A stretch of 24,000 nucleotides of DNA from Phormidesmis sp. (GCA_051860365.1 JBHYED010000005.1:114888-138887), one strand, 5' to 3'; numbered from the stretch's first letter, positions 3,725-17,483 are shown. Translations and numbers: made by a program. Notes: generated by a model not told the origin, from the letters alone.

Positions 3725-3928
3725 ATGCCACAAAAATATGTTTCAAGAAAAGCAGCTCCGTTTCAGTACTTTTTCAGACGGCTAAACTCTGAGGCTGGCC
3801 GAGTATCTCCTGGCTGGGGAACAGCGCCTATTATGGGTGTCATGCTAGTGATGTTGCTGCTGTTTATCCTAACTATTTTACAGCTGTATAACGGCACTGT
3901 TTTGCTTGAGGGCGTCAATATAAACTGA
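3725..3928 (+). CDS. psbH: Photosystem II reaction centre protein H, far-red paralog
   Basis: 67 aa. RRLNSEAGRVSPGWGTAPIMGVMLVMLLLFILTILQLYNGTVLLEG matches the PsbH core ([20 protein letters not shown]...ILQIYNSS..LEG) with a single TM helix. Confidence 0.9.
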   Translation: MPQKYVSRKAAPFQYFFRRLNSEAGRVSPGWGTAPIMGVMLVMLLLFILTILQLYNGTVLLEGVNIN

Positions 3929-3991
3929 CAGTAGTTTCTATAGAGATTGGAGCTATAGAGGCTAGAATGCTCTGAAATAAAAAATAAAGAT

Positions 3992-4028
3992 GGCTCTCAA
4001 GGCGCAATCCTTGGGGGCCATTCTTATT
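3992..4028 (+). terminator. Candidate intrinsic terminator of the psbDCBH transcription unit
   Basis: GGCTCTCAAGG (3992-4002), loop CGCAAT, CCTTGGGGGCC (4009-4019): 11 bp including two G-U pairs, followed by ATTCTTATT. The T-tract is weak. Confidence 0.4.
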
Positions 4029-4307
4029 AATGAAGAGCAATATATCCTCATATATCTCTATTTACCTCATATATATCCATTTATCTATCAATCTACTAAG
4101 ATACCGTCCGTTATTTCCGTAAAACTAACGCTTCTGAAAGAACATTTTGTCCTTTTTGAAAATAGACGTCTAAAGATAGACTATAGCGGCTGTAAGCTAT
4201 GCTACGGGACGCTTTGACAATAGATAAAAAGTTAGTGTATAACGGTAAAACAGCTCCATATAATATATAATACTTTATAAAAATAAAAAAGAGATTTTCA
4301 ATATTAA

Positions 4308-5315
4308 ATGAAAGGCAATCAAAATTCTGAGCCGGAACGTCTTTTTCAGGGCTCAGTTCCCGCAGACTACCCTGATAACGAAGAAGACAGAATTCAGCAG
4401 CTTCTGCGCTATCGAATTTTAGATACAGAACCGGAAACAGCCTATGATGATTTGGCTGCGATCGCGGCTCATATCTGCGGTACAGAGATTTCCTTGGTCA
4501 GCTTTATCGACGTTTCCAGGCAGTGGCTTAAGTCTACAATAGGAATAGACGTCATTGAAACTGCTCGCGAGATAGCCTTTTGCTCGCACGCTATTTTGCA
4601 GCCTCAGGTCATGGTTATTCCAGATACCTTGGCAGACGAACGCTTCGCGCATAATCCACTGACAACGGGCGCTCCGCACATTCGGTTTTATGCAGGGGCA
4701 CCTCTCATTACGGCTGGAGGCCATGCCTTAGGAACACTCTGTGTGATAGATCGCGAGCCCAAGCAGCTTACAGCCGAACAAATCAGTGCGCTTGAAGCCC
4801 TCGCGCGGCAGGTCGTTAATCAGCTAGAAACGCGGCTAATGCTGCAAAAGATTCAGAATGAGGTTGCCGAGCGCGAGCAGACGGAAGCAAAGCTACAGCA
4901 GTCAAACATTGATTTGGAAAACCGTATCAAAAAGCGGACAGAACTTATTCGCTATCAGAACCGGCAGCTCGAACGCGCTTTTGAAAATGCTCGACAGGCT
5001 CAGGCTCAGCTTATTGATCTGGAGAAAACGGCGTCTTTAGAGCAGTTGGTCTCTAGCATTGCTTATGAAGTTAACAATCCGCTGGGCCTGATCGCTGGAA
5101 ATATTCAGCGTGTGCAGGCATATGTAGCTGATCTGATAGCGCTGATATGGCTGTATCGAGAGCAGTATGGAGAAGTAGATGATGCGATCGCAGCCCAAAT
5201 AAAAGAGAGCGAGCTAGATTTCATTAGCGTAGACGTTATAAAAAAACTCAGCGCTATGCAGAAATCGGGTGATGACCTGCTCATAATTTTTCAATCGCTG
5301 CAAAACTTTACTTGA
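4308..5315 (+). CDS. GAF-domain protein with coiled coil and a truncated HisKA/DHp remnant lacking the phospho-acceptor His (degenerate sensor kinase, no ATPase domain)
   Basis: Common bacterial GAF signature (LLRYRILDTEPE..YDDLAAIAAHICG..ISLVSFID..RQWLKS...FCSHAI...IRFYAGAPL...GTLCVIDREPKQL). A Q/E/R-rich coiled coil follows, then SLEQLVSSIAYEVNNPLGLIAGN...ELDFI....LQNFT. This aligns to the H-box region of cyanobacterial kinases (..AHEINNP...LRNFSR..). The His codon is TAT (Tyr, 5064-5066), and the ORF stops where the rest of the DHp and HATPase_c would follow. Confidence 0.8.
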   Translation: MKGNQNSEPERLFQGSVPADYPDNEEDRIQQLLRYRILDTEPETAYDDLAAIAAHICGTEISLVSFIDVSRQWLKSTIGIDVIETAREIAFCSHAILQPQVMVIPDTLADERFAHNPLTTGAPHIRFYAGAPLITAGGHALGTLCVIDREPKQLTAEQISALEALARQVVNQLETRLMLQKIQNEVAEREQTEAKLQQSNIDLENRIKKRTELIRYQNRQLERAFENARQAQAQLIDLEKTASLEQLVSSIAYEVNNPLGLIAGNIQRVQAYVADLIALIWLYREQYGEVDDAIAAQIKESELDFISVDVIKKLSAMQKSGDDLLIIFQSLQNFT

Positions 5316-5379
5316 AAAACAGAGATCATCAAGATGAATTGGAAAGACTTTTAGAAGACGAAAACATCAAGATAATCTG

Positions 5380-5901
5380 TTACGACTGCTTGTTTGCATC
5401 ATTCTGATGACTCTCTTTGCTTTTCAACCCAGCGATACCTGTGCCACCCAAAACGCCTGCTGCAACAGAAAGCACAGTCAGCGGAATCTTTCCCTCTGCA
5501 TCTTTAACAACATAGGCAAATCCTAAAGATGAGATGAAAACTGCTAAGAAAATGCCCAAACCCCAGCGGACACTACTTTGAACAAAATTTCGATCAGCGG
5601 TGCGATCAGCGGCTTTACTCGCGTCTCTTTTCTCTTCTAAAGATAGCTTTGCCTGAGCTATTTGTAGCTGATGGGATCGTTCTTTATCGCGATCTTGATA
5701 CTCCAGGTTCACCCATTTATCAATATAATCCAGAGCCATATCGGGTTCAACCCTGGAGATGGTTTGAGTAATTTCGACTGGAATTCCTGACCTGCCTGGT
5801 ACCTGTAACTCTTGCACGACTGGAATAACAGGCGCAGGAAGTGACTGGGAAGATGTCGGTTTATTTTGCGGAGAGGATTCTGGGGCTGAAGAAGTACTCA
5901 T
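5380..5901 (-). CDS. Hypothetical membrane-anchored protein (Pro/Ser-rich N-terminus, charged helix, two C-terminal TM helices); last gene of the TPR-CHAT operon
   Basis: 173-aa ORF with an ATG start 3 nt after the stop of the upstream gene. Predicted TM segments are WGLGIFLAVFISSLGFAYVV and IPLTVLSVAAGVLGGTGIAGL. The topology resembles DUF2335-type proteins, but I cannot confirm homology. Confidence 0.6.
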   Translation of the reverse strand: MSTSSAPESSPQNKPTSSQSLPAPVIPVVQELQVPGRSGIPVEITQTISRVEPDMALDYIDKWVNLEYQDRDKERSHQLQIAQAKLSLEEKRDASKAADRTADRNFVQSSVRWGLGIFLAVFISSLGFAYVVKDAEGKIPLTVLSVAAGVLGGTGIAGLKSKESHQNDANKQS

Positions 5902-5904
5902 TGT

Positions 5905-6582
5905 TTAGGAAGGTTCGGAGAGCTTGGCGGGCGTCGTGCCAAAAATTTGAACTAGGGCAGGAGCCACAATTTGATTCAGCGTTTGATTCATGAGATAGGC
6001 TGCATGGGTGGTTGCATACTGTTCATCTTTGTGAATCAAGATAATTGCATCCGCTTCTCCAGGATTGCGACGGTCGTGACTAACAACCCAATCAGGGTTA
6101 CTTTGCCGAATGGCTTCAACTTGCTTAGAGAATATGATCACAGCTTGAGGCGAGGCTGTATCTGGGAGTGTGTAGCGATAAACAATAGGCTGAGTTGGAG
6201 ACAGTGTCGATGTCGCGAAAGCTTTAGAGCTATCGTCAGATGTCGAATGGGGTGTAGGTTTTATCTCCCGAGATGAAAAAGGAGAATTGAAAGACTGTTT
6301 TGAAAATGGATCGGACTGTTTTAGCAAACTGTGATTATCAGTACTCATACGCTTATTGCGATCGCCCTCTGCTTTGCGCAACAATTTCCTGGCAGTTTGG
6401 TAAGCTGCATTGAGCTGAGGATATTGTTTAGCAGTCTTGCTCAATTCTGTAATGTATTGCTCTGGAGATTGGGCGATCGCCCACACCTTTTCAGGCAACT
6501 CAACGCCCTCCTCACGGCAGGTTTCAAGGGCCGTGACAAAAGCCTCAACAGCAAGTTGTTCGAGTGGTTCAAGAGAGTGCAT
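5905..6582 (-). CDS. Hypothetical protein (helical N-domain, Ser/Thr-rich linker, ~85-aa C-terminal domain); middle gene of the TPR-CHAT operon
   Basis: 225-aa ORF. Its ATG (6580-6582) overlaps the end of the CHAT gene by 14 nt, which suggests translational coupling. I recognise no family. Confidence 0.6.
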   Translation of the reverse strand: MHSLEPLEQLAVEAFVTALETCREEGVELPEKVWAIAQSPEQYITELSKTAKQYPQLNAAYQTARKLLRKAEGDRNKRMSTDNHSLLKQSDPFSKQSFNSPFSSREIKPTPHSTSDDSSKAFATSTLSPTQPIVYRYTLPDTASPQAVIIFSKQVEAIRQSNPDWVVSHDRRNPGEADAIILIHKDEQYATTHAAYLMNQTLNQIVAPALVQIFGTTPAKLSEPS

Positions 6583-9500
6583 TGGTCGGGCCTCCGAGTC
6601 CCATGAGCGTAAAGGCCGCCCAGTAGTAAGGATGACGATAACGGCGCTGATCTGAGTCTATTGTATCAAGGTCATTCCGCTCGTCTTCTAAGAATTCCCT
6701 CACGTTTACAGACAGATCAAGCGTGAGCCAGTAGTCATAGCGGGTTTTGAGCTGAGCTACGGTAAGATCGCGCAGGGTACGACGACTGTGATGATAGGCG
6801 TCAGCAGGGCCGAGGTGAAGATGAGTATAAAATTCGACCATAAAAACCATACTGGCCGCAGATTCTACAGTCCAAAAGGTGCTGAGAACGTGCGGAATGT
6901 CTTGGCCGAGAAAGGCGCTAGCGATGCCGACATATTCAGCCGTGATAGTTTGGTTGCCGCTAAGAGCAGTTTCGCAACTGGCGAGGGTAACTAGGCTGTA
7001 GGCCTCTAGAGAAATTTGAGACAGGTCTTGAACCGTGAGGTTGTCGCTACCAGTAAGCGCAAGGGCAGAGTCTTTAGGGTTCGTAAAATTGTAAGCAGCA
7101 TGGCCATTGAAGTGGAAAATTAGATGAGGGTTAGCTAGCGCTTGGCTAACGGTAGAATGATTGGCTTTGCCAGCGGTTACCGTTTCCACTGAATAGGATT
7201 TAGCAAGTATCTGATTGATCAAATGCGTTTCGGCTTCGGCATGATAGAGAGGGCCGAGATCAGCATGATTGGGAGCGGTGATGGTGAGGGCGCTAGACGA
7301 CGTATCGAGTTGAGTGATTGCAGGGCGGAGGGTTTGGCCTAGCTGGAGGCTGGGTAGCGTAGTGGTTTGATAGTCGCTGAAGAAATAAGGTAGCGGCAGA
7401 CGATGGAGATCACGATGAGGGACGAGGGTGAGGTGAGCGATGTCTGGAAGAAGCTGAGCTTTAATCGCATCAACTTGGAGAATTTCGGCGAGGCGGTGAA
7501 GCTGATCGGGGAGAGCCTTGAACCAGTCAGACTTATTGCTGGGGAGCGAACCTTTACTTTTGTCGATGTGAAACTGATAGGTCTGATTCCAGTTTTTGAG
7601 CCAGGTTTCTAGCTTCCTAACTTGCTGAATATTGGACTTGATGTCGTCGTCTGTGGCACGACTGAGCGTGGTGGGTTGTGCTTTGTCCCAGCGCAGGATG
7701 AAGGTAGTCAGAGCGTCGGCGCTAAGATGCCAGTAGACAATCGCTGAATGGGGGCGAAGCAACTGACGCATCGCGTCGTAAGTAGCCGTTGGGATATCGT
7801 CTGGGTCTTGCCAGCGCAATAGCCAGGTCATCAGCCAGTTTTTGTCTGCTTCCGCAGTTTCTAAGGCTTTAACGATTTCTCCTTTTTGCAGGAGTAGATC
7901 AACCGTTATTTGTCCAAAGTTAGCGAATTGGAGTCCGAGTCGCTTTTTCTGAGGGTCAGAGGTCGCTTCAGCAAGGATGCGGCGCAAAAGTGCTGTTCCT
8001 TGGCGCAAAAGGGCCGCTACGACCTCATTGTTAATTTGCAAGGCTCCATAGGTACGCAGTAAAAGCGTCAGCAGTTCCAGTCTTGCTTGGGGAAAGGCCT
8101 CTGCTGTAAAAATTTTCAGTGCGGCTTCGTAGCTAGCGGTGGCTTTGCGCCAGTAGGGCCGGGGATTTTCCTGACGGTTGCCCCAATGACGATGAGCTTC
8201 ACCCAGGCCTTGGTGCAATTTCCCACAGTTTTCACTATCTGCTTGAGCATACTTAAAGCCTTCCTGAATGCAGGCAATCTGTCCCTCATATCCCCGTAAG
8301 TCTAGTTGAGAGTTTTGCATTTGAGGTGGCAAAGAATGAATCACCAACGTTTTCTGACTGCTGCGAAGCGAGGAACTGAGAGAAGCGTTCACAGCGCTAA
8401 TTCCTCGCCCAATCCATGCATCAGCAAAATCGGGTTTGTAGTGCAGTGCCTTGTCACAGCTATTGATCGCTTCCTCATCTTGTCCTAAATTGGTTAGCGC
8501 AAGGGCACGACCATGCCAAGCTTCAACATAGTCGGACTTGTACCGCAAGGACTGATCGTAGTCGATGACTGCCTCTTCGTAGCGTCCTAACGCACCTAGC
8601 ACAGCTCCTCGATTCGTCCAGGCAAGAGCAAGGTCAGGCTTATACTGTAGCGCCCTCTCACAATCTACTAGAGCTTCTTCATCACGTTCTAAACTGAGTA
8701 GTGCACAGCCTCTATTATTCCAAGCCATTGCATCACTGGGCTTGTACTGCAATGCACGATCTAGGCTGACTAACGATTCTTCGTAACGACCTAACTGACC
8801 GAGCGCCGCACCGTAGTCACCCCAAATTTCAGGAGCATCTGGTTGATATCGCAGGGCTTGATCAAAACTGGTGATGGATTCTTGATGTTGATCTAAGCGA
8901 CACAGTGTAAAACCACGATTTTTCCAAGCTTGTGTATAGTCCGGCTTATGTTGCAAGGCTTGATCGTAGTTAGACAGTGCCTCTTCGTGGTGTCCTAGCT
9001 TCGATAGGGCAAACCCCTTGTTGTTCCAAGCATCAGCATCATTTGCTTCATAGACTAAGACCTGCTCAAAATCAGCGATTGCTTCTTCGTAGCGTTCCAG
9101 CCTAACCAGCACGAAACCGCGATTTCTCCAAACCTGAACATAGTCCGGCTTATGTTCTACTGCTTTACCGTAGCTAACAAGCGCTTCCTCACAGCGGCCC
9201 AGCTTTTCCAGCACTGCACCACGATTATTCCAAGCTTGAGCGTAGTCTGGCTTGTATTCTATCGCTTTGTCATAGCTAATAAGCGCTTCCTCGTAGCGTT
9301 CTAAATTATTGAATGCGAAACCCCGATCAAGCCAAGCATTATGGTTGACAGGATTGAGCGCCAAAGCCCGATCATAGCTAGCAATAGCATCCTCACAGTG
9401 GCCTGCATGTCGTAAAGCTAGGCCTTTGATGAACCAGCCCTTCCATACCTCAGGCTGAAGTGCAATGCTTCGTTCAGCCGATTCAATCGCTTCCCAGTAC

Positions 9501-10192
9501 CTTTCGCAGATATTTAGGATAGCTGCCCGACTGTTCCAAACATCAGACAAATCAGGATTGAGGTGTAATGCTTGATCGTAGTTGGAGATCGCCTCTTCAT
9601 ATTTCTTGAGTTCGGCTAATGCGCTGCCTCGATCAATCCAAGCTTCGATATAGTCTGGTTTATACTTCACAACTTGCTCGCATCTATTAATTAGATCTTC
9701 ATAGCGATTTAATTCTTTCAAAGCCGAACTCCGAAGCTGCCACCAAACAGCAGGAAAATCTTGCTGATGGTCTAACGCTTTGTCGAAGCTGACAACTGCC
9801 TCTGAATACTCTCTTAATCCTATGAGCACTACACCTCTACGGTGCCAGGCTAGAGCTTTCTCTGGCTGATATCTCAGAGCATTGTCGTAGCAAATGATTG
9901 CATTCTCAAGTTCCCTCGCAAGAAACTGCTGATATCCCTGTTTCTGCCAATAATCCGCCTCCAATTTCAGGTTGCCACCAAGCGCGATCGCCTGCTCGAG
10001 GGCTACCTCCGCTTCCCTATATCGCTGCAACTGCTTTAGCGCTTCTATCTTTCCTTCCCAAGATTCAAGTAGCTCAGGATTCAGGCTCAAGGCACACTCA
10101 AAAGACTCCAGTGCCGTTTCGTAGACGCTTGAATAAATCTGCCGTTCGGCGAGGGATTGCCATTCTACTGCCTGCATTGGAAAAATCCACAC
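6569..10192 (-). CDS. TPR-repeat / CHAT-domain (caspase-fold) protease, 1207 aa
   Basis: The N-terminal ~610 aa hold 17-18 consecutive 34-aa TPR units (pattern xxAWxNRGxAL..LxRYEEAL..YD.AL.yKPDy). The C-terminal ~300 aa is a CHAT domain with an intact dyad: HFNGH (His codon 7100-7102) and LASCETA (Cys codon 6974-6976). GTG start at 10192, alternative ATG at 10177. Confidence 0.9.
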   Translation of the reverse strand: MWIFPMQAVEWQSLAERQIYSSVYETALESFECALSLNPELLESWEGKIEALKQLQRYREAEVALEQAIALGGNLKLEADYWQKQGYQQFLARELENAIICYDNALRYQPEKALAWHRRGVVLIGLREYSEAVVSFDKALDHQQDFPAVWWQLRSSALKELNRYEDLINRCEQVVKYKPDYIEAWIDRGSALAELKKYEEAISNYDQALHLNPDLSDVWNSRAAILNICERYWEAIESAERSIALQPEVWKGWFIKGLALRHAGHCEDAIASYDRALALNPVNHNAWLDRGFAFNNLERYEEALISYDKAIEYKPDYAQAWNNRGAVLEKLGRCEEALVSYGKAVEHKPDYVQVWRNRGFVLVRLERYEEAIADFEQVLVYEANDADAWNNKGFALSKLGHHEEALSNYDQALQHKPDYTQAWKNRGFTLCRLDQHQESITSFDQALRYQPDAPEIWGDYGAALGQLGRYEESLVSLDRALQYKPSDAMAWNNRGCALLSLERDEEALVDCERALQYKPDLALAWTNRGAVLGALGRYEEAVIDYDQSLRYKSDYVEAWHGRALALTNLGQDEEAINSCDKALHYKPDFADAWIGRGISAVNASLSSSLRSSQKTLVIHSLPPQMQNSQLDLRGYEGQIACIQEGFKYAQADSENCGKLHQGLGEAHRHWGNRQENPRPYWRKATASYEAALKIFTAEAFPQARLELLTLLLRTYGALQINNEVVAALLRQGTALLRRILAEATSDPQKKRLGLQFANFGQITVDLLLQKGEIVKALETAEADKNWLMTWLLRWQDPDDIPTATYDAMRQLLRPHSAIVYWHLSADALTTFILRWDKAQPTTLSRATDDDIKSNIQQVRKLETWLKNWNQTYQFHIDKSKGSLPSNKSDWFKALPDQLHRLAEILQVDAIKAQLLPDIAHLTLVPHRDLHRLPLPYFFSDYQTTTLPSLQLGQTLRPAITQLDTSSSALTITAPNHADLGPLYHAEAETHLINQILAKSYSVETVTAGKANHSTVSQALANPHLIFHFNGHAAYNFTNPKDSALALTGSDNLTVQDLSQISLEAYSLVTLASCETALSGNQTITAEYVGIASAFLGQDIPHVLSTFWTVESAASMVFMVEFYTHLHLGPADAYHHSRRTLRDLTVAQLKTRYDYWLTLDLSVNVREFLEDERNDLDTIDSDQRRYRHPYYWAAFTLMGLGGPTNALS
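8348..10174 (-). repeat. Diverged tandem 102-nt (34-codon) TPR coding repeats inside the CHAT gene
   Basis: The 34-residue periodicity is clear in the protein. The DNA copies are too diverged to be exact repeats. Confidence 0.7.
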
Positions 10193-10294
10193 TAAAGTCG
10201 TTCTGCTAAAAACTGTAGCGCCTTGCCCACAAGCTTAGATGTCAAGTCAGTTTTTCTTAGCACTAATAACATCAAATCAGAAGCTTCAGTGCAC

Positions 10295-10323
10295 AAAAAA
10301 GCACCCTCTAGAAAAGAGAGTGC
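10295..10323 (-). terminator. Intrinsic terminator downstream of far-red psbA
   Basis: The minus-strand RNA reads GCACUCUCU-UUUCU-AGAGGGUGC (9 bp, one G-U) followed by UUUUUUGUGC. It lies 63 nt after the psbA stop and upstream of the CHAT gene start. Confidence 0.55.
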
Positions 10324-10385
10324 TGGGAGAGGAATCCTGAGGAAATCAAATAAATTCCCTCACCGCGTGGACTAGAAAAGTTGGA

Positions 10386-11465
10386 CTAAGCCTGAATATC
10401 GGGTGCCTGCATGGCCACAGGTGTAGACTCACCGCTGGCCAAATCTAACGGGAAGTTATGGGCGTTGCGTTCGTGCATGACTTCAAACCCCAGACTGGCC
10501 CGGTTCACAACATCAGCCCAGCTCGGCAGCACTCGCCCTTGAGCATCTAGTACGGAGTGGTTGAAGTTGAAGCCGTTGAGGTTGAAGGCCATGGTGCTAA
10601 TGCCGAGTGCAACAATCCAGATGCAGACAACAGGCCAAGCCGCTAGGAAGAAGTGGAGCGACCTGGAATTATTAAAGCTGGCGTACTGAAAAATAAGCCT
10701 GCCAAAGTAACCGTGCGCTGCCAAAATGTTGTAAGTTTCTTCTTCTTGACCAAACTTGTAGCCGTTGTTTTGTGATTCTACTTCAGAGGTTTCGCGAATG
10801 AGGCTAGAGGTGACGAGTGAACCGTGCATGGCGCTAAACAACGCGCCGCCAAAGACACCAGCTACACCAATCATATGAAACGGGTGCATCAGGATATTAT
10901 GCTCTGCCTGGAAGACGAACATAAAGTTAAACGTGCCGCTGATGCCCATGGGCAGGCCATCAGAAAAACTGCCCTGGCCGATAGGATAGATGAGGAAAAC
11001 AGAGATAGTAGCCGCTACGGGCGCCGAGTAGGCGATACAGATCCAAGGGCGCATGCCTAGTCGGTAGCTCAGTTCCCACTCGCGGCCCAAGTAGCACAGC
11101 AGCGCTGGAATGTAGTGAAAGCCAATCATCTGATAGGGGCCACCGTTGTAGAGCCATTCATCTAAGCTGGCCGCGCCCCAAATGGGGTAAAAGTGCAGGC
11201 CGATGGCGTTAGAGCTAGGCACTACGGCAGCAGTGATGATGTTGTTGCCGTATAGCAAAGAGCCTGAAACGGGTTCGCGAATGCCGTCAATATCGACGGG
11301 TGGAGCCCCGATGAAGGCGATCACAAACACGGTGGTGGCGACGCCGAGCAGAGGAATCATCAAGACCCCAAACCAACCGATATACAGCCTGTTTTCAATA
11401 CTGGTAACCCAGCGACAAAATCTTTCCCAAAGAGAGAGATTTGGGCTTTGAATAGCAATAGTCAT
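10386..11465 (-). CDS. psbA: Photosystem II D1 protein, far-red paralog (PsbA3-type, water-oxidation competent)
   Basis: [22 protein letters not shown]... is the canonical D1 N-terminus. It retains Tyr161 (LIYPIGQG), Asp170 (FSDGLPMG), Glu189/His190 (QAEHNIL), His198, His215, His272 and the C-terminal ligand block [16 protein letters not shown], followed by a 16-aa extension (CtpA-type cleavage site). The ORF track start at 11507 adds 14 non-homologous residues, so ATG 11465 is preferred. Confidence 0.93.
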
Positions 11466-11547
11466 GGTTTTGTTTTGTGATGAAAAGGATTGTATGAACA
11501 TCCTCATTAGAACAAAACAAAGTGAAAATCTGATGAAGAAAAAAAGA

Positions 11548-11988: not shown

Positions 11989-14556
11989 CTAGTCGAAATC
12001 GTCGGGAATTTTCTTTATAATAGGCAGGGTGAGGAAAAAAGTACTGCCCGTACCGACTTCACTCCCGGCCCATATTTCTCCCTGATGCTGTTGAATAATG
12101 CTGCGGCAGATAGCCAGCCCTAGCCCTGTCCCGCCCTGATGGCTAGCATCTGAGGTGTTAAGCTGCTCAAACTGATTAAAAACAGCTTCTAGCTTGTTTT
12201 TAGGAATACCTTTTCCCTGATCAATGACCTGTATCAGCAGTAAAGAATCTGCTATTTCTAATCCTGCTGCGATCGCGAGCTGGCCTTGCTTATTTAGACC
12301 CGATGTTTGCTGAAAGCCGTCGCCTAATTTTATCTGCTGAGCAGTGACTCGAACCGTTGAGCCCTCGGGGGAGAACTTAATAGCGTTACTCAATAAGTTA
12401 GTCAGCGTTTGAATAATTCGATCAGAATCAGCCCATAGCTGCATAGAAATCGGAGAGGTCGCAAGGTGAATATGATGATTTTCTGCCATGGCGCGCATTT
12501 CATCGGCAGATTGGGCCATAATCTCAGAGAGGTCACAGATGCTTTTATTCAGCTTAATTCTACCTAACTTGATTTGTTCAACATCTAGAATATCGTTGAC
12601 CAGTCGAACCAATCGATTCGTATTGGAAGAGGCAATTTCAACCATCCGCTGACGCTTATCTGTTGGAATTTCGAGTTCTTTTTTGGAGAGTAGACCTAGG
12701 GCGGCGCGAATTGAGGTCAGCGGTGTTCTCAGCTCGTGACTAACCACGGCGATAAATTCGTCTCTCATCGACTCAACGGCCTGCCGCTCGGTAATATCTT
12801 GAAAAATAACCACTGCACCAATAATGTTCCCTTTTTCTTGAATAGAGGTGCTAACATATTCTACTGGAAAGCGCAGGCCATCTTGCCGGGTAAACAGATC
12901 GCCTGCTACGTGATGCGTTCTGCCGTGCTTGAGCGTATTAAAAATCGGACTTTTTTCCCACGTATAGGGCTTACCTTTAGGCGTAGCGTGGCGCAGAAAA
13001 TCATGCGTAAACTGCCCTACTATCGTTTGACGCCTACTCCCTAGCATTTTTGCCGCAGCAGGGTTAACAAACACAATTTTTCCCTTGGGATCAATGCCGT
13101 ATATGCCTTCTCCTGCGGCGTTAAGAATCAGCTCATTTTGATGGCTAATACGCTTTAAAGAGTCTCTCGCTTCTTGTAGGGCCTGCAGGGTCTTTTCTCG
13201 CTCAGTAATTTCTCTTTTGAGATCTCTGTTGGCTGCTTGAAGCTGTAGAGTACGCTGTTTTACGCGTGACTCCAAATCAGCATTCAGCGCCTGAACCTTC
13301 TGATAAAGCTGATCTTGATATATCGCCGAGGCAAACTGATCGGCCAAGTCTTGGGCAAGTCCAATTTCTTGTGATGTCCATGGATTAGCCTGTTCTTTTT
13401 TGATTTCTTTCCACACTGAGAACGACTTGCGAGGAAGCCTTTGTCTCGGATCAACACTGTCTAACCGACCGGCCCAAACGGTCTCTATATCGGTCGCGTG
13501 GCGCAGCAGGCTCAGGTAGCCTAAGAAATGATTTTGATGAACCAGTTTGACCACTAAAATACTTCGGATCTGACTGCTTTCTAATGCTGCCACCATACCT
13601 GAAGGTATTTTTGAGCGCCGAATATCAGGAATAGCCCACAGGTTTGCTACAATCTGATGAGCCGCTTCAGCTTCCAGCCACTTTGGCCAGTCAAAGAAGT
13701 GTTCTAGGATAGCTGATTTGCGCTCAGGAAATTGATCGGCTGAGCAATGCTGAGGCAATGAGCTGTGCGGCAGCAAAGGCTGTTTTCCGACAGTTACTAC
13801 TTTTGTCGGCAGATAGATGCGACCCCCAGCACATTGAAGTGCTGCAACCATTTGACCTAAGGCCCGTTTTACCGGATGCTGAGCCGTCGCGTGCAGGTGG
13901 GATACGATTTGATTGATGGTCGATTCGTGCTGTCCTTGCTGGCGGGTAATACTCAGCAAATTGGCATGGGCGATCGCCACAGAAACCTGGTCGGCAATGA
14001 GCTGCACAATCTCCAGGGTTCTGTTGCCAAATCGCTTCGGCACGCTATGGTGTGCGACCAAAAGTCCCCAGAGCTGATAGTGATGAAGAATCGGCACCAC
14101 CAAAGAAGCCTGCACGCCCATCTCTTTTAAATATTCAACGTGACAAGGATCGACCATTCGAAACGCCACCTGTGCAAACAGCTCTTCTTGGGCCTCTTTC
14201 TCTAAAACGGGGCTAATGCCAATCTCTCCTTTGTCAACGTTAACGATGCTGCGCTGTCGGGCCGTCAAAAACAGATTACGGGCCTCTGTTGGAATATCTC
14301 CGGCAGGAAACCGCTGCCCCAATAGAGAGGGAAGCTGCTGATTTCGAATAGACTCAGCGACCACCTCACCGCTACCATCGTCTTGAAACTGATACACTTT
14401 TACCCGGTCAGTTTTCAGAAACCGGCGCATTTCATCTGCTGTGGCCTCTAAAATTTCGGATAGCTCCAGCGATTTACGAATGCGATCGGTCATTCGATGC
14501 AGTAAATCTTCTAGGCTTTTAATGGGAAGAGGGGTATTCATAAGACCGATAGACAT
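11989..14556 (-). CDS. rfpA: Knotless phytochrome histidine kinase RfpA (GAF-PHY-like-PAS-HisKA-HATPase)
   Basis: The N-terminal GAF carries the phytochrome bilin-lyase motif RMVDPCHVEYLKEMGVQASLVVPI (Cys138 codon 14143-14145). There is no PAS/knot N-terminal extension. It continues with a second GAF/PHY-like region, a coiled coil, a PAS domain (GEGIYGIDPKGKIVFVNPAA), the H-box VVSHELRTPLTSI, the N-box LLSNAIKFSP, G1 DQGKGIP and G2 GGTGLGLAICRSI. Confidence 0.9.
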   Translation of the reverse strand: MSIGLMNTPLPIKSLEDLLHRMTDRIRKSLELSEILEATADEMRRFLKTDRVKVYQFQDDGSGEVVAESIRNQQLPSLLGQRFPAGDIPTEARNLFLTARQRSIVNVDKGEIGISPVLEKEAQEELFAQVAFRMVDPCHVEYLKEMGVQASLVVPILHHYQLWGLLVAHHSVPKRFGNRTLEIVQLIADQVSVAIAHANLLSITRQQGQHESTINQIVSHLHATAQHPVKRALGQMVAALQCAGGRIYLPTKVVTVGKQPLLPHSSLPQHCSADQFPERKSAILEHFFDWPKWLEAEAAHQIVANLWAIPDIRRSKIPSGMVAALESSQIRSILVVKLVHQNHFLGYLSLLRHATDIETVWAGRLDSVDPRQRLPRKSFSVWKEIKKEQANPWTSQEIGLAQDLADQFASAIYQDQLYQKVQALNADLESRVKQRTLQLQAANRDLKREITEREKTLQALQEARDSLKRISHQNELILNAAGEGIYGIDPKGKIVFVNPAAAKMLGSRRQTIVGQFTHDFLRHATPKGKPYTWEKSPIFNTLKHGRTHHVAGDLFTRQDGLRFPVEYVSTSIQEKGNIIGAVVIFQDITERQAVESMRDEFIAVVSHELRTPLTSIRAALGLLSKKELEIPTDKRQRMVEIASSNTNRLVRLVNDILDVEQIKLGRIKLNKSICDLSEIMAQSADEMRAMAENHHIHLATSPISMQLWADSDRIIQTLTNLLSNAIKFSPEGSTVRVTAQQIKLGDGFQQTSGLNKQGQLAIAAGLEIADSLLLIQVIDQGKGIPKNKLEAVFNQFEQLNTSDASHQGGTGLGLAICRSIIQQHQGEIWAGSEVGTGSTFFLTLPIIKKIPDDFD

Positions 14557-16499
14557 TACGGCGTGCTGTGGGCGATCGCAGCAATAGCCTGCTGGAGATG
14601 CGATCGCCTAATGTGATCTCGCAGGTGACTCTGTAGTTCTGAGTGGGGCAACGATTTTTCAACAAAGTCATTGGCACCGACTCTAAAAGCAGATTGTTGT
14701 AGATGCCTGTCGCTGTAGGCCGTGAAGAACACAATGGGCAAATGGTTCCAGGCGGGCGACTGTCTTACCGCCTGACACAGCTCAATCCCACTAAACTCAG
14801 GCATCAAAATATCTAACAGCAGCAGATCAGGCGCGGTTGTTTGCAGCGTGTCCCAAAAGTTGAGCGGGTCGTTTAAGGTCACGACCTCAAATCCCTGGCC
14901 TTCCATCCGAAGCTGCAGTGCACTTAGCGCCTGCGCATCATCATCAACAATCAGAATTTTGTGGGCGTGCTTTTGAACGTGCGATCGCAACAGGACAATG
15001 CCCTCGACCACTGCTGCCACCTTAGGCGTATAGAGAAAAGGATAGTCACCGAGCTGAGCGGCTTTAATTCGATTGGCCAGCGATCCATCTGAGCTGCATA
15101 TCATCAGCATCAGGTCGGGTATTGGGCGAGTGAGCGCCGATAGCATTTTGATCTGATCGCTGCTAGCTTCTGACAGCGAAAAATCAAGCAGCACGACATC
15201 AGGAAACGTTCTTTTTGCAGAAGAAGTATCTGCAGGCGGCTGGCTTTGAACGCATTGCAAAATATTGGCGAGTCTTTGCAGCGCCTTAATGTCGGGCGAT
15301 ATTTTGACAGCAAGCCCCTTTTCCCAAAGCGCTTTAACGAGCACAGAAGTCAGATCAAGCTGAGGATCGATCAGCACAACAAGCGGTAGCTCGCATTCTT
15401 TTCTAACCGGTTCTGAGTCCTGAATGGCGTGGTTAATATCACGATCGAGTGATTCGATCAGCGGGATGAGGCGATCGCACATCTCAGCAGAAACCACGGC
15501 CTTGCCTGCCAGCAGCTCCTGAACCTCTCTGGCCGTATGGGATCCAGATCTCATCCCAAAAACACCGAGCGCTCCTGTCAAACCGTGGGCCGCTCGATAT
15601 CCAGCTTGTCTTAGCGCGTCATCGGTCTGCCCCGATTGAAACCTTTGCAACATCTCTTTCAACAAATCTAATCGCTCAATCTGTTGAAATTGAACTGACG
15701 TCCAAAGTGTTGCCAGCATCGCCTTGGTTTTCTGTTGACGCGCTTGCTTCTCAACCTGTTCTACGTCCTGTGTAGCCGCAGCTTCCGTTTCCTCATCACG
15801 AGCATTATTAGAAGACTCAGACGACGTGAGCGGATTGAGCCGGTAGCCCACGCCATAAATTGTTTCGATAAAATCAGCCGAAGCACCTGCTTGAGAAAGC
15901 TTTCGTCTGAGCCCTTTAATGTGAGAGGTAACGGTTTCTTCTCCAGGCGCTTCGCTATAGCTCCACAAACTGTCTAAAATTGCCCTGCGGCTGAATACCT
16001 GCGACGAATTTCTTAAAAAAAGCTCCAGCAGCGCATACTCTTTTGGCGTTAAGTTTAGCGAAGTCTGACGATAGGTGACTTCTCTACTGTTTGTTTCCAA
16101 ACGTAAGTCTCCCCAGTCAAGGCTAAGCAGCACAGAGGTTTTGGCGCGTCTTAACAGAGCCCGAACCCGAGCCAGTAGTTCTTCTACTTCAAATGGTTTT
16201 GTGATGTAATCGTCTGCGCCCGCGTTGAGCCCAGCAATTTTTTTGTCGCTGCTATCTAACGCCGTCACCAGTAGCACCGGCATCCCATACGAAAACTCGC
16301 GCAGCCGTTTACAAAACGTCAGCCCATCTAACTTAGGCAGCACAATATCCAGAATCACCAAATCATAGTGAGAGGCGCTCACCATTTGCCAGCCAGAATC
16401 ACCATCGCTAGCAACGTCAATGGCGTAATGCTCATTTGACAATACTTTGTGAAGAGCTTCAGCAATGGCTGCGTCATCTTCTACAAGTAAAATCCTCAT
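14556..16499 (-). CDS. rfpB: Multi-domain DNA-binding response regulator RfpB (REC - OmpR-type winged helix - HPt-like - degenerate REC - REC)
   Basis: REC1 is MRILLVEDD...LVILD51IVLP...TALD...KPF. The winged helix is LTPKEYALLELFL...VTSHIKGLRRKL...IYGVGYRL. The C-terminal REC is KILIVDDD...LLLLD563ILMP...FFTAY...K. Its stop TAA overlaps the rfpA ATG (TAATG, 14554-14558). Confidence 0.88.
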   Translation of the reverse strand: MRILLVEDDAAIAEALHKVLSNEHYAIDVASDGDSGWQMVSASHYDLVILDIVLPKLDGLTFCKRLREFSYGMPVLLVTALDSSDKKIAGLNAGADDYITKPFEVEELLARVRALLRRAKTSVLLSLDWGDLRLETNSREVTYRQTSLNLTPKEYALLELFLRNSSQVFSRRAILDSLWSYSEAPGEETVTSHIKGLRRKLSQAGASADFIETIYGVGYRLNPLTSSESSNNARDEETEAAATQDVEQVEKQARQQKTKAMLATLWTSVQFQQIERLDLLKEMLQRFQSGQTDDALRQAGYRAAHGLTGALGVFGMRSGSHTAREVQELLAGKAVVSAEMCDRLIPLIESLDRDINHAIQDSEPVRKECELPLVVLIDPQLDLTSVLVKALWEKGLAVKISPDIKALQRLANILQCVQSQPPADTSSAKRTFPDVVLLDFSLSEASSDQIKMLSALTRPIPDLMLMICSSDGSLANRIKAAQLGDYPFLYTPKVAAVVEGIVLLRSHVQKHAHKILIVDDDAQALSALQLRMEGQGFEVVTLNDPLNFWDTLQTTAPDLLLLDILMPEFSGIELCQAVRQSPAWNHLPIVFFTAYSDRHLQQSAFRVGANDFVEKSLPHSELQSHLRDHIRRSHLQQAIAAIAHSTP

Positions 16500-16747
16500 T
16501 TTGGGTGACCTGAGTAAAAGGTGAGCTAATTTCAGCTTTTATAGCGATACTAAAAGCAGCGCATCAAAGGAAACTTTTTAGAGTGCTACCAATGCACTTC
16601 TTAATGAAAAGAAACTCAGCAAGTAGAGATTTCTTTCTTAAAATAATTTTAGCAATCTTATTTAAACTCTCATCAAAGTATATAAAAATTTAAGTCGATC
16701 AATACCTGCTATCACCAGTTTTATCAGCGCTTTCTTACAATCAAGTA

Positions 16748-16785
16748 AGCGTTTAGAGATACATGGTTTTATATCTCTAAACGCT
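16748..16785. repeat. Perfect 14-bp inverted repeat (AGCGTTTAGAGATA / TATCTCTAAACGCT) with a 10-nt loop, in the psaJ-rfpB spacer
   Basis: Arms at 16748-16761 and 16772-16785 are exact reverse complements. The repeat lies 58 nt downstream of the psaJ stop and ~250 nt upstream of the rfpB start. Neither strand has an adjacent U-tract. Confidence 0.6.
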
Positions 16786-16842
16786 GTGTTAGATATGCAA
16801 TTTTTAGCGGTGCGGTGTCAACTTTAATCGTAGGCGGCTCAC

Positions 16843-16983
16843 CTAGGGAACGCTGTGAAAGTAGGTGCCATACTGCAGGCCAGGAAAGAGATGATTTAGC
16901 TCAATCATGACGACAGAAAGAGACACCAAAGCAGCCGTCGCCATAATGGGCGCGCTGGTTAAGTATTTCATCAAATATTTCAT
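16843..16983 (-). CDS. psaJ: Photosystem I subunit IX (PsaJ), far-red paralog; absent from the supplied ORF track (<60 aa)
   Basis: Hand translation gives MKYLMKYLTSAPIMATAALVSLSVVMIELNHLFPGLQYGTYFHSVP*. The LTSAPIMA...IELNHLFPG pattern resembles PsaJ (..YLSTAPVLA...IEFNRFYPD..). A GGAGA SD lies between the psaF stop and this ATG. The canonical psaF-psaJ order is kept. The internal ATG at 16971 is an alternative start. Confidence 0.8.
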   Translation of the reverse strand: MKYLMKYLTSAPIMATAALVSLSVVMIELNHLFPGLQYGTYFHSVP

Positions 16984-16997
16984 AAGAATCTCCAAAT

Positions 16998-17483
16998 TTA
17001 GCGAGGGGATACAGATATCTCATTGGCTGGGGCCGTGAGCGCGCCAGTTGTGAGTTCTTTTACCGCGAGCAGCGGCCATAGCAGCCCCTGTGCAAACGCC
17101 TGGATTGCCAAAGCAACATCAATGAAAATTTCAGGTTCTTCTGGCTTGTCCACACGGTTACTCTTCAGCAAATAGGCGCGGCCCGACCAGCCAATAAATC
17201 CAGCGACGTAAAAGAACAGGGCGAAAGGAATGGCGATGTCAGCGGCTCGATCAAACCGTAGCTGCAAATGAGGCAGCCCCTCTGCGCCGCAAAGTAGATT
17301 GGCGGCATAGGACTGGTAAGGCGTGTCAAAGTAGTAGTTGTCAGGCGCGCTTTGCATCCGCTCTTGAAACGCGGCTGAATCTTGGCAAGGGACTAGGTGA
17401 GTGTCTGCAGTGGCTGGCGATGCGACGCTAGCCCAAATGAAAACAATCAATAAAAACGAAAAAACTTTACGCATCGGAAGCAT
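16998..17483 (-). CDS. psaF: Photosystem I subunit III (PsaF), far-red paralog
   Basis: Signal peptide followed by ADTHLVPCQDSAAFQERMQ....LLCGAEGLPHL and a TM region, all PsaF hallmarks. The ATG at 17474 (MRKVF) has an AGGAG SD 9 nt upstream and may be the true start. Confidence 0.92.
   Translation of the reverse strand: MLPMRKVFSFLLIVFIWASVASPATADTHLVPCQDSAAFQERMQSAPDNYYFDTPYQSYAANLLCGAEGLPHLQLRFDRAADIAIPFALFFYVAGFIGWSGRAYLLKSNRVDKPEEPEIFIDVALAIQAFAQGLLWPLLAVKELTTGALTAPANEISVSPR

Follow-up and report, generated by a model that had tools for sequence, protein, structure and literature searches.

A TPR-CHAT protease cassette with two uncatalogued partner proteins in a far-red light photoacclimation cluster of Phormidesmis sp., probably one form of a modular cyanobacterial family

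The three genes and their products

The far-red light photoacclimation (FaRLiP) cluster of the cyanobacterium Phormidesmis sp. carries three consecutive genes for a protease composed of tetratricopeptide repeats (TPR) and a CHAT domain, a 225-aa two-domain protein, here termed the adaptor, and a 173-aa protein with two transmembrane (TM) helices. We analyzed this cassette in a 24,000-nucleotide (nt) stretch of the genome (GCA_051860365.1, JBHYED010000005.1:114888-138887), hereafter referred to as the window, whose numbering is used unless another locus is named. As summarized in Table 1, the three open reading frames (ORFs) were tightly packed on the minus strand, in the manner of an operon, in the order TPR-CHAT protease, 225-aa protein, and 173-aa protein, and their coordinates confirmed the packing described in a first-pass annotation of the window, namely a 14-nt overlap between the first two ORFs and a 3-nt gap between the last two. 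The public gene call places the start of the TPR-CHAT gene at ATG 10177, giving 1202 aa, and this codon, not GTG 10192, is the probable start. The flanks were likewise as annotated: the far-red psbA, rfpC, rfpA, and rfpB lie to one side, and to the other a GAF-HisKA gene precedes psbH, psbB, psbC, psbD, and apc genes.

In the large protein, many TPR families of Pfam were matched (TPR_1, E-value 7e-95), and a repeat hidden Markov model (HMM) built from the clear repeats delineated an uninterrupted array of 17 units; the proposed range of 17-18 units was accordingly retained at its lower figure. The DNA of this region repeats with a period of 102 nt at 60-74% identity, and no recent tandem DNA repeats were found in it. 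The orthologs differ in the number of TPR units and hence in length (783-1892 aa), and the array is presumed to be the sensor or ligand-binding part of the protein. The CHAT domain was identified with a score of 116.2 bits against a gathering score of 24 (PF12770, E-value 2.5e-33). Its His/Cys dyad was found where it had been read, at H1031 (HFNGHA, codon 7100-7102) and C1073 (LASCET, codon 6974-6976). Both residues were invariant in seven orthologs and, in an alignment, coincided with the His and Cys of P0188, a minimal caspase-like relative; the dyad is intact, and proteolytic activity is predicted. The protease contains no TM segment, and in PADLOC-DB v2 it gave generic TPR matches only.

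The two smaller proteins had been described as unrecognizable, and indeed neither matched Pfam, NCBIfam, or PADLOC. The accompanying doubt as to whether these ORFs are genes at all was dispelled by their homologs, by purifying selection, and by confident domains in AlphaFold2 (AF2) models. Homologs of the 225-aa protein fell into 22 clusters and those of the 173-aa protein into 10, all of them cyanobacterial or metagenomic, and an exhaustive profile search retrieved 148 relatives of the 225-aa protein among 1.84 billion representatives. The dN/dS ratios (nonsynonymous to synonymous substitution rates) against six orthologous loci were 0.09-0.16 for the N-domain, 0.03-0.13 for the C-domain, and 0.36-0.87 for the intervening linker of the 225-aa protein, and 0.03-0.11 for the helical region and 0.06-0.15 for the TM region of the 173-aa protein. 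The folded parts of both small proteins are thus under strong purifying selection, and the linker is relaxed.

The AF2 model of the 225-aa protein, built with the family alignment, comprised a helical N-domain and a small C-domain joined by the Ser/Thr-rich linker that had been noted before, which was predicted to be disordered. The linker proved to be hypervariable in both length and sequence among homologs, and is missing in a few of them (P0011 and P0020). Immediately before it, at the end of the N-domain, the family alignment revealed a near-invariant R75-x-K77-R78. The C-domain is characterized by the motif YRYxLP...NPxW...D...GE.[DE]A...Y. Its predicted fold, with three strands, is only loosely RRM/KH-like; a Foldseek search of the AF2 model against the PDB gave no significant structural match, and a search of PDB sequences with the C-domain profile found nothing.

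The 173-aa protein begins with a variable N-terminus, which is followed by a conserved helical region (residues about 39-110) assigned as cytosolic and then by TM1 and TM2. In agreement with the claim of two C-terminal TM helices, hydrophobic segments were located at residues 114-132 (nt 5506-5562) and 141-159 (nt 5425-5481), the second being glycine-rich. Four of nine family members matched PF20712, "Cyanobacterial TRADD-N associated 2-TM domain", below threshold (best E-value 0.021), and the protein of the window reached 13 bits against a cutoff of 24.3, in the TM region only.

Table 1. Features of the cassette in the window (upper rows) and the stretch following psbA in the three nearest FaRLiP clusters (lower rows, in the numbering of each locus and with the percent identity of RfpA)
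Feature	Location	Strand	Basis or content
TPR-CHAT protease gene	6569..10192	-	ORF; Pfam TPR and CHAT; 1207 aa from GTG 10192
TPR array, 17 in-phase 34-residue units, residues 25-602	8387..10120	-	Repeat HMM
Helical middle region, residues 603-897	7502..8386	-	No Pfam domain
CHAT domain (caspase-fold, clan CD), residues 898-1198	6599..7501	-	Pfam PF12770
225-aa two-domain adaptor gene	5905..6582	-	ORF, homologs, AF2; 14-nt overlap of its start with the CHAT stop
N-domain, four helices, residues 1-80	6343..6582	-	AF2, predicted local distance difference test (pLDDT) about 90 (residues 6-80)
Disordered Ser/Thr/Pro-rich linker, residues 82-127	6202..6339	-	AF2, pLDDT <50
C-domain, beta-alpha-beta-beta-alpha, residues 130-215	5938..6195	-	AF2, pLDDT about 94 (residues 134-214)
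173-aa membrane protein gene	5380..5901	-	ORF, homologs, hydropathy, dN/dS
Hairpin (10-bp stem) and T-tract, after the psbA stop and before the CHAT gene	10290..10324	-	Terminator scan and sequence
FaRLiP cluster L013 (RfpA 73%)	14264..16375		366-aa gene between psbA and psbH, unrelated
FaRLiP cluster L015 (RfpA 67%)	14746..17304		Usp, CBS, and 179-aa gene between psbA and psbH
FaRLiP cluster L014 (RfpA 72%)	6414 onward		No psbH; split after psbA, unrelated genes next

Recurrence of the trio and of the C-domain in other loci

The trio was found in the same order in at least eight other cyanobacterial loci, none of which lies inside a FaRLiP cluster; besides the window, the same-order arrangement was seen in L004, L006, L007, L009, L011, L012, and L016. 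In every trio locus the genes were closely spaced, the distance from CHAT gene to adaptor gene ranging from -14 to +6 nt and that from adaptor gene to 2-TM gene from -4 to +21 nt. Direct Pfam scans and tblastn identified the upstream genes as encoding TPR-CHAT proteins of 1659 aa (L004), 1605 aa (L007), 1892 aa (L011), 783 aa (L006), and at least 1640 aa (L016); in L009, L010, and L012 the upstream ORF is truncated but of the same kind. At the contig edge of L008 the last 32 residues of CHAT were retained, and L010 likewise showed the C-terminal end of CHAT there. Throughout the trio loci the non-TPR half of the protease, consisting of the middle region and CHAT, was 67-83% identical, except for L006 (42%). 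The divergent downstream genes of L004 (184 aa) and L005 (104 aa) were recognized as 2-TM homologs by HMM scores of 33 and 27 bits, respectively, and by their architecture.

The scan of species-representative genomes yielded three loci, a lower bound given that it was pattern-based. In the metagenomes, a scan with a trio-type profile added one further full trio, L016, which is probably from the same species as L010, and a narrower C-domain alignment led to no confirmed loci. In plasmids, tblastn gave no match.

Several loci showed peculiarities of their own. At L005 (453-849), a fragmented and frame-shifted remnant of the CHAT C-terminus is followed by a divergent adaptor, the shortened 2-TM protein of 104 aa, and a ParE toxin gene; the locus appears to hold a cassette copy in decay. 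At L002 (5925-14038), the adaptor/2-TM pair follows genes for a LeoA-like dynamin/TerB protein and a 429-aa protein, and on its other side come a 100-aa ORF and an HSP70 gene; the 429-aa protein bears no similarity to the CHAT protein, and the arrangement may be another architecture of the family. At L011 (Elainellaceae), PADLOC placed a mad3-like ATPase (1039-2181) and a mad6-like Ser/Thr kinase (14716-16056) on the flanks of the cassette, which suggests a defense-island setting. Other neighbors of a defense type were a type I restriction-modification system and PIN in L006, together with the aforementioned dynamin of L002 and ParE of L005.

The exhaustive profile search further revealed that the two domains of the adaptor are separable. 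The N-domain also occurs alone, in many proteins of ~120-160 aa, or fused to DUF4325 (STAS-like), DUF433, or HEAT. The C-domain also stands alone (about 80-106 aa), and forms the C-terminus of a TIR protein (P0182), a Ser/Thr kinase (P0199), a COR-A/COR-B protein (P0184), and P0188, whose CHAT/caspase-like domain scores below threshold and has an intact dyad; AAA_16 (P0172, a weak match), two-GAF (P0207), and coiled-coil proteins end in it as well.

L019 (185-4147) encodes an LRR-Roc-COR protein that ends in a TIR-like region. Downstream of it come a TIR protein carrying the C-domain and then, with a 4-nt overlap, a 180-aa 2-TM homolog, the whole of which could be aligned with the 173-aa family (30.7 bits), the glycine-rich TM2 included. 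This locus is the GTPase/TIR counterpart of the CHAT cassette. In L020-22, a caspase-like protein fused to the C-domain precedes a 104-aa 2-TM homolog (22 bits). As position and architecture agree in L019 and L020-22, the constant core of the family appeared to be the succession of C-domain protein and 2-TM protein, with an interchangeable sensor or switch (TPR-CHAT, LRR-Roc-COR-TIR, or a fused minimal caspase-like domain) and an interchangeable module attached to the C-domain. That the C-domain is fused to COR and caspase-like domains provides Rosetta-stone hints that it may work physically with the upstream protein. Directly 3' of the pair in L020 (7408-8135) lie two overlapping ORFs of 131 and 111 aa without Pfam match; they are kept in L021 and L022, and could be further components or a toxin-antitoxin pair.

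Relation to the FaRLiP cluster

With RfpA as the anchor, L013, L014, and L015 were identified as the nearest FaRLiP clusters, the RfpA relatives belonging to marine Phormidesmis-like, PCC 7335-like, or Leptolyngbya-like cyanobacteria. These clusters have a common layout of psa genes, rfpB, rfpA, rfpC, and psbA and differ in how they continue past psbA (Table 1); the trio was absent from all three. The convergent apc-psbD-psbC-psbB-psbH unit of the window was also present in L013 and L015. The junction of the convergent rfpBAC-psbA and apc-psbDCBH units (window 3900-5380 and 10193-10385) is a variable cargo slot, different in each related FaRLiP cluster inspected, in agreement with the published observations that most large insertions and splits in FaRLiP clusters occur downstream of the rfp genes (10.1101/2024.05.15.594131) and that some clusters hold extra unrelated genes (PMC4390838). 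Conversely, no photosystem or rfp genes were found near the trio loci elsewhere.

The same junction of the window holds, 3' of psbH and convergent with the cassette, a gene for a 335-aa protein of GAF, coiled-coil, and HisKA regions (4308-5315, plus strand). This protein has no HATPase_c domain and is a truncated or non-canonical histidine kinase; its gene was not kept at the psbA/psbH junction of the nearest FaRLiP clusters, and the 366-aa gene of L013 is unrelated to it. An AT-rich spacer separates the GAF-HisKA gene from psbH and contains two tandem copies of a 19-nt direct repeat, CCTCATATATCTCTATTTA (4046-4083).

As to the transcriptional signals, the hairpin and T-tract reported between psbA and the cassette were located at 10324-10300 and turned out to be the sole terminator-like site of the region and likely constitute the psbA terminator, the overall number of sites in the scan being no higher than in shuffled sequences. 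A promoter of its own, expected for the cassette within 10193-10294, was not detected on the minus strand of that interval by a consensus scan. FaRLiP operons are reported to be preceded by a conserved T-rich motif (10.1101/2024.05.15.594131). Alignment of the psbA upstream regions of four clusters gave the invariant block CAYTTTGYTTTGTTCTAAT, and a T-rich block, CACTTTGTTTTGTTCTAAT, that does not vary among three related FaRLiP clusters was located at 11506-11524 (minus strand) upstream of the far-red psbA. In a test confined to this psbA-type variant, no copy with up to 3 mismatches in 19 was found upstream of the CHAT gene, the copy at 11506-11524 being the only one in the window. Since the T-rich block overlaps the first ATG of the psbA ORF (11507), psbA probably starts at ATG 11465 (359 aa), the start given in the public gene call (region 11465-11547).

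No flanking direct repeats, insertion sequence element, or compositional break were found around the cassette as scars of a recent insertion. All three HIP1 sites listed by the first-pass annotation (6358, 6473, and 9984) are present. They had been taken as a sign of long residence; HIP1 was, however, equally frequent in the homologous cassettes of other cyanobacteria, so that the sites do not discriminate long residence from transfer between cyanobacteria.

Interpretation and comparison with known systems

On this evidence, we consider it somewhat more probable than not (roughly 0.55) that the cassette is a self-contained and vertically conserved cyanobacterial unit, riding as a passenger in the FaRLiP cluster, and that it represents one form of an undescribed modular family for which we infer a protease-gated membrane mechanism of conflict or cell death. 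In such a mechanism, the TPR array would bind a protein or peptide cue and thereby license the CHAT protease, which would act on the adaptor; by analogy with HetF, a candidate site lies at or after the R-x-K-R at the boundary of N-domain and linker. The C-domain would then pass the event on to the 2-TM protein at its cytosolic helical region, after which the glycine-rich hairpin of the latter would perturb the membrane, resulting in growth arrest or cell death. Of the two readings offered by the first-pass annotation, a resident protease-gated membrane-effector module fits the conserved trio in non-FaRLiP contexts and the adaptor domain shared with TIR, kinase, caspase-like, and Roc-COR proteins, behind which the 2-TM protein is found as well.

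A number of points weigh against this interpretation. Cleavage of the adaptor, binding between the C-domain and the 2-TM protein, and toxicity are steps that we infer. The missing linker in P0011 and P0020 argues against the linker as an obligatory cleavage substrate, and the adaptor/2-TM pair of L002/L003 (one metagenome-assembled genome), the sole locus at which the pair has no adjacent CHAT gene, implies no strict requirement for the protease in cis. The partners have no PADLOC match and the C-domain no significant structural match, and the AF2 model of the 173-aa protein is poor (pLDDT 58) and chiefly one long helix. Only two non-CHAT architectures, L019 and L020-22, were inspected in their genomes, and the HMM scores of the distant 2-TM homologs are modest (22-32 bits) and come from very small search spaces. 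The 67-83% identity of the CHAT half together with purifying selection would also suit a housekeeping regulatory pathway. Finally, read-through from the far-red psbA into the cassette is possible.

The housekeeping pathway just mentioned, in which the 2-TM protein would be an anchor or regulator and the 225-aa protein a substrate or adaptor whose level is set by the TPR-CHAT protease in a regulated proteolysis of housekeeping or development, is the most serious of the alternatives, and we regard it as rather unlikely. Strong purifying selection and the similarity of the CHAT half across genera speak for it, as do the single-copy, chromosomal, non-plasmid state of the cassette, its often ordinary neighbors (RuvA, arginyl-tRNA synthetase, an ABC transporter, MinD/E, and Fe-ADH), and the precedent of HetF and its substrate PatU3 (PMC9457339). 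It is at odds with the patchy and rare distribution (148 relatives in 1.84 billion proteins and three loci in the genome scan), with a highly variable TPR copy number, with the decay of CHAT in L005 and its replacement in L002, with the defense-type neighbors of several loci, and with the shuffling of the C-domain onto TIR, kinase, caspase-like, STAND-like, and Roc-COR proteins, which is typical of conflict systems.

Recruitment to far-red photoacclimation, the second reading of the first-pass annotation, would have the cassette co-expressed with psbA and remodeling or degrading white-light parts of the photosystems or the phycobilisome. The cassette does lie directly 3' of the far-red psbA, on the same strand and inside the cluster, its GC content and HIP1 density resemble those of its surroundings without insertion scars, and the terminator may be read through. 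Nevertheless, the proposal fails by the criteria that the first-pass annotation itself had set: the three nearest FaRLiP clusters lack the trio and carry other cargo or are split there, at least eight copies reside outside FaRLiP clusters, a hairpin/T-tract terminator follows psbA, the psbA-type T-rich motif does not precede the CHAT gene, and published insertions fall mostly in the same part of the cluster (10.1101/2024.05.15.594131), all of which makes a role in the acclimation highly improbable. That the small ORFs are not genes, or that the trio is a chance juxtaposition with a common TPR-CHAT protein, would accord with the want of matches in curated family libraries. It is incompatible in practice with the 22 and 10 clusters of homologs, the dN/dS of 0.03-0.16 in the folded regions, the confident AF2 domains, and an order and spacing that are constant in all loci, and is given next to no credence here.

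Going beyond the passenger-cassette interpretation, the C-domain and 2-TM proteins may be an undescribed pair of adaptor and membrane effector, founding a new cyanobacterial immune or cell-death family with interchangeable sensors; the pair may be a distant functional analogue of TRADD-N signaling and, in the present strain, could be conditionally expressed in far-red light by read-through from psbA directly upstream. This broader proposal is a tentative one, to which we give about one chance in three.

For studies of FaRLiP, the locus is a caution that not all content of a cluster belongs to the acclimation program, the psbA/psbH junction being a cargo slot. For the biology of prokaryotic immunity and cell death, it offers a compact, experimentally tractable, and apparently undescribed three-gene unit. 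It also brings to light two uncatalogued families, the C-domain and the 2-TM protein, which in multicellular-type cyanobacteria connect a membrane protein with caspase-fold proteases, TIR domains, and Roc-COR GTPases. Should the mechanism proposed above hold, it would represent a new route from a repeat sensor via proteolysis to a membrane effector, and the C-domain would be a new member of the set of adaptor domains common to bacterial conflict systems.

Among known systems, the type III-E Craspase consists of gRAMP/Cas7-11, the TPR-CHAT protease Csx29, its substrate Csx30, and Csx31/RpoE, and the activated CHAT protease cleaves the product of an adjacent gene to elicit a downstream response. 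The present cassette resembles it in having a TPR-CHAT gene beside the genes of two partners, one of them with several domains and a flexible stretch between these, the other small. In contrast, no CRISPR array, gRAMP, Csx30/Csx31, or sigma factor was found in the window or in the 10-kb flanks of the homologous loci, the TPR array of the cassette, with 17 units, is by far the longer, and its partners show no sequence relationship to those of Craspase. Bacterial gasdermin operons combine a caspase-like protease fused to repeats, or another protease, with a pore-forming gasdermin, and hence also place a repeat-sensor protease gene beside that of a membrane-acting protein, as is presumed here. 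The membrane protein of the cassette is, however, a 2-TM hairpin that is membrane-integral without processing. The gasdermin analogy drawn in the first-pass annotation was not upheld for the fold of the 225-aa protein: its AF2 model consists of a four-helix domain and a small beta-alpha-beta-beta-alpha one, and the Foldseek search of the PDB with this model gave no gasdermin.

A cyanobacterial parallel is HetF of Anabaena sp. PCC 7120, the one CHAT protease of cyanobacteria that has been characterized, which has TPRs and cleaves its specific substrate PatU3 after Arg in a Cys-dependent manner (PMC9457339). Both combine TPR and CHAT in a cyanobacterium, and the near-invariant R-x-K-R lies at a domain boundary of the 225-aa family. 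They differ in that HetF is membrane-anchored with periplasmic TPRs and has its substrate encoded elsewhere, whereas the protease of the cassette has no TM segment and its partners are translationally coupled downstream.

In the conflict systems that Kaur, Burroughs, Iyer, and Aravind described for multicellular bacteria (EAD-coupled systems, EACC1/caspase membrane systems, and TRADD-N systems), a constant small adaptor is combined with fast-varying TIR, caspase, kinase, STAND, or TPR modules; these systems predominate in cyanobacteria, and membrane helices with conserved Gly patches have been proposed as their sensors or effectors (PMC7159879, PMC8195603). The C-domain, small and fused to many alternative effector and signaling modules, follows the EAD principle (Kaur et al., 2020). 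Unlike in EAD systems, no homotypic coupling was seen, the TPR-CHAT and 2-TM proteins being without C-domain; the constant partner is the 2-TM protein, and the CHAT version here lacks an NTPase switch. The Pfam EAD, EACC, and TRADD_N models matched neither the N-domain nor the C-domain even at E-values up to 10. The resemblance of the 2-TM protein to PF20712, the TRADD-N-associated model, is weak and stays below threshold. The hallmark of TRADD-N itself is an RRM-like fold whose turn between beta2 and beta3 bears a small residue and then Ser (PMC8195603, PMC7159879). TRADD-N was considered as the identity of the C-domain and was not supported, in that there was no TRADD_N match in Pfam and no TRADD chain in the PDB profile and Foldseek searches, and that the turn is an invariant G-E. 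Repeat sensors, caspase-fold proteases, adaptors, and membrane proteins are a familiar combination in cyanobacteria, which the present cassette builds with two uncatalogued families.

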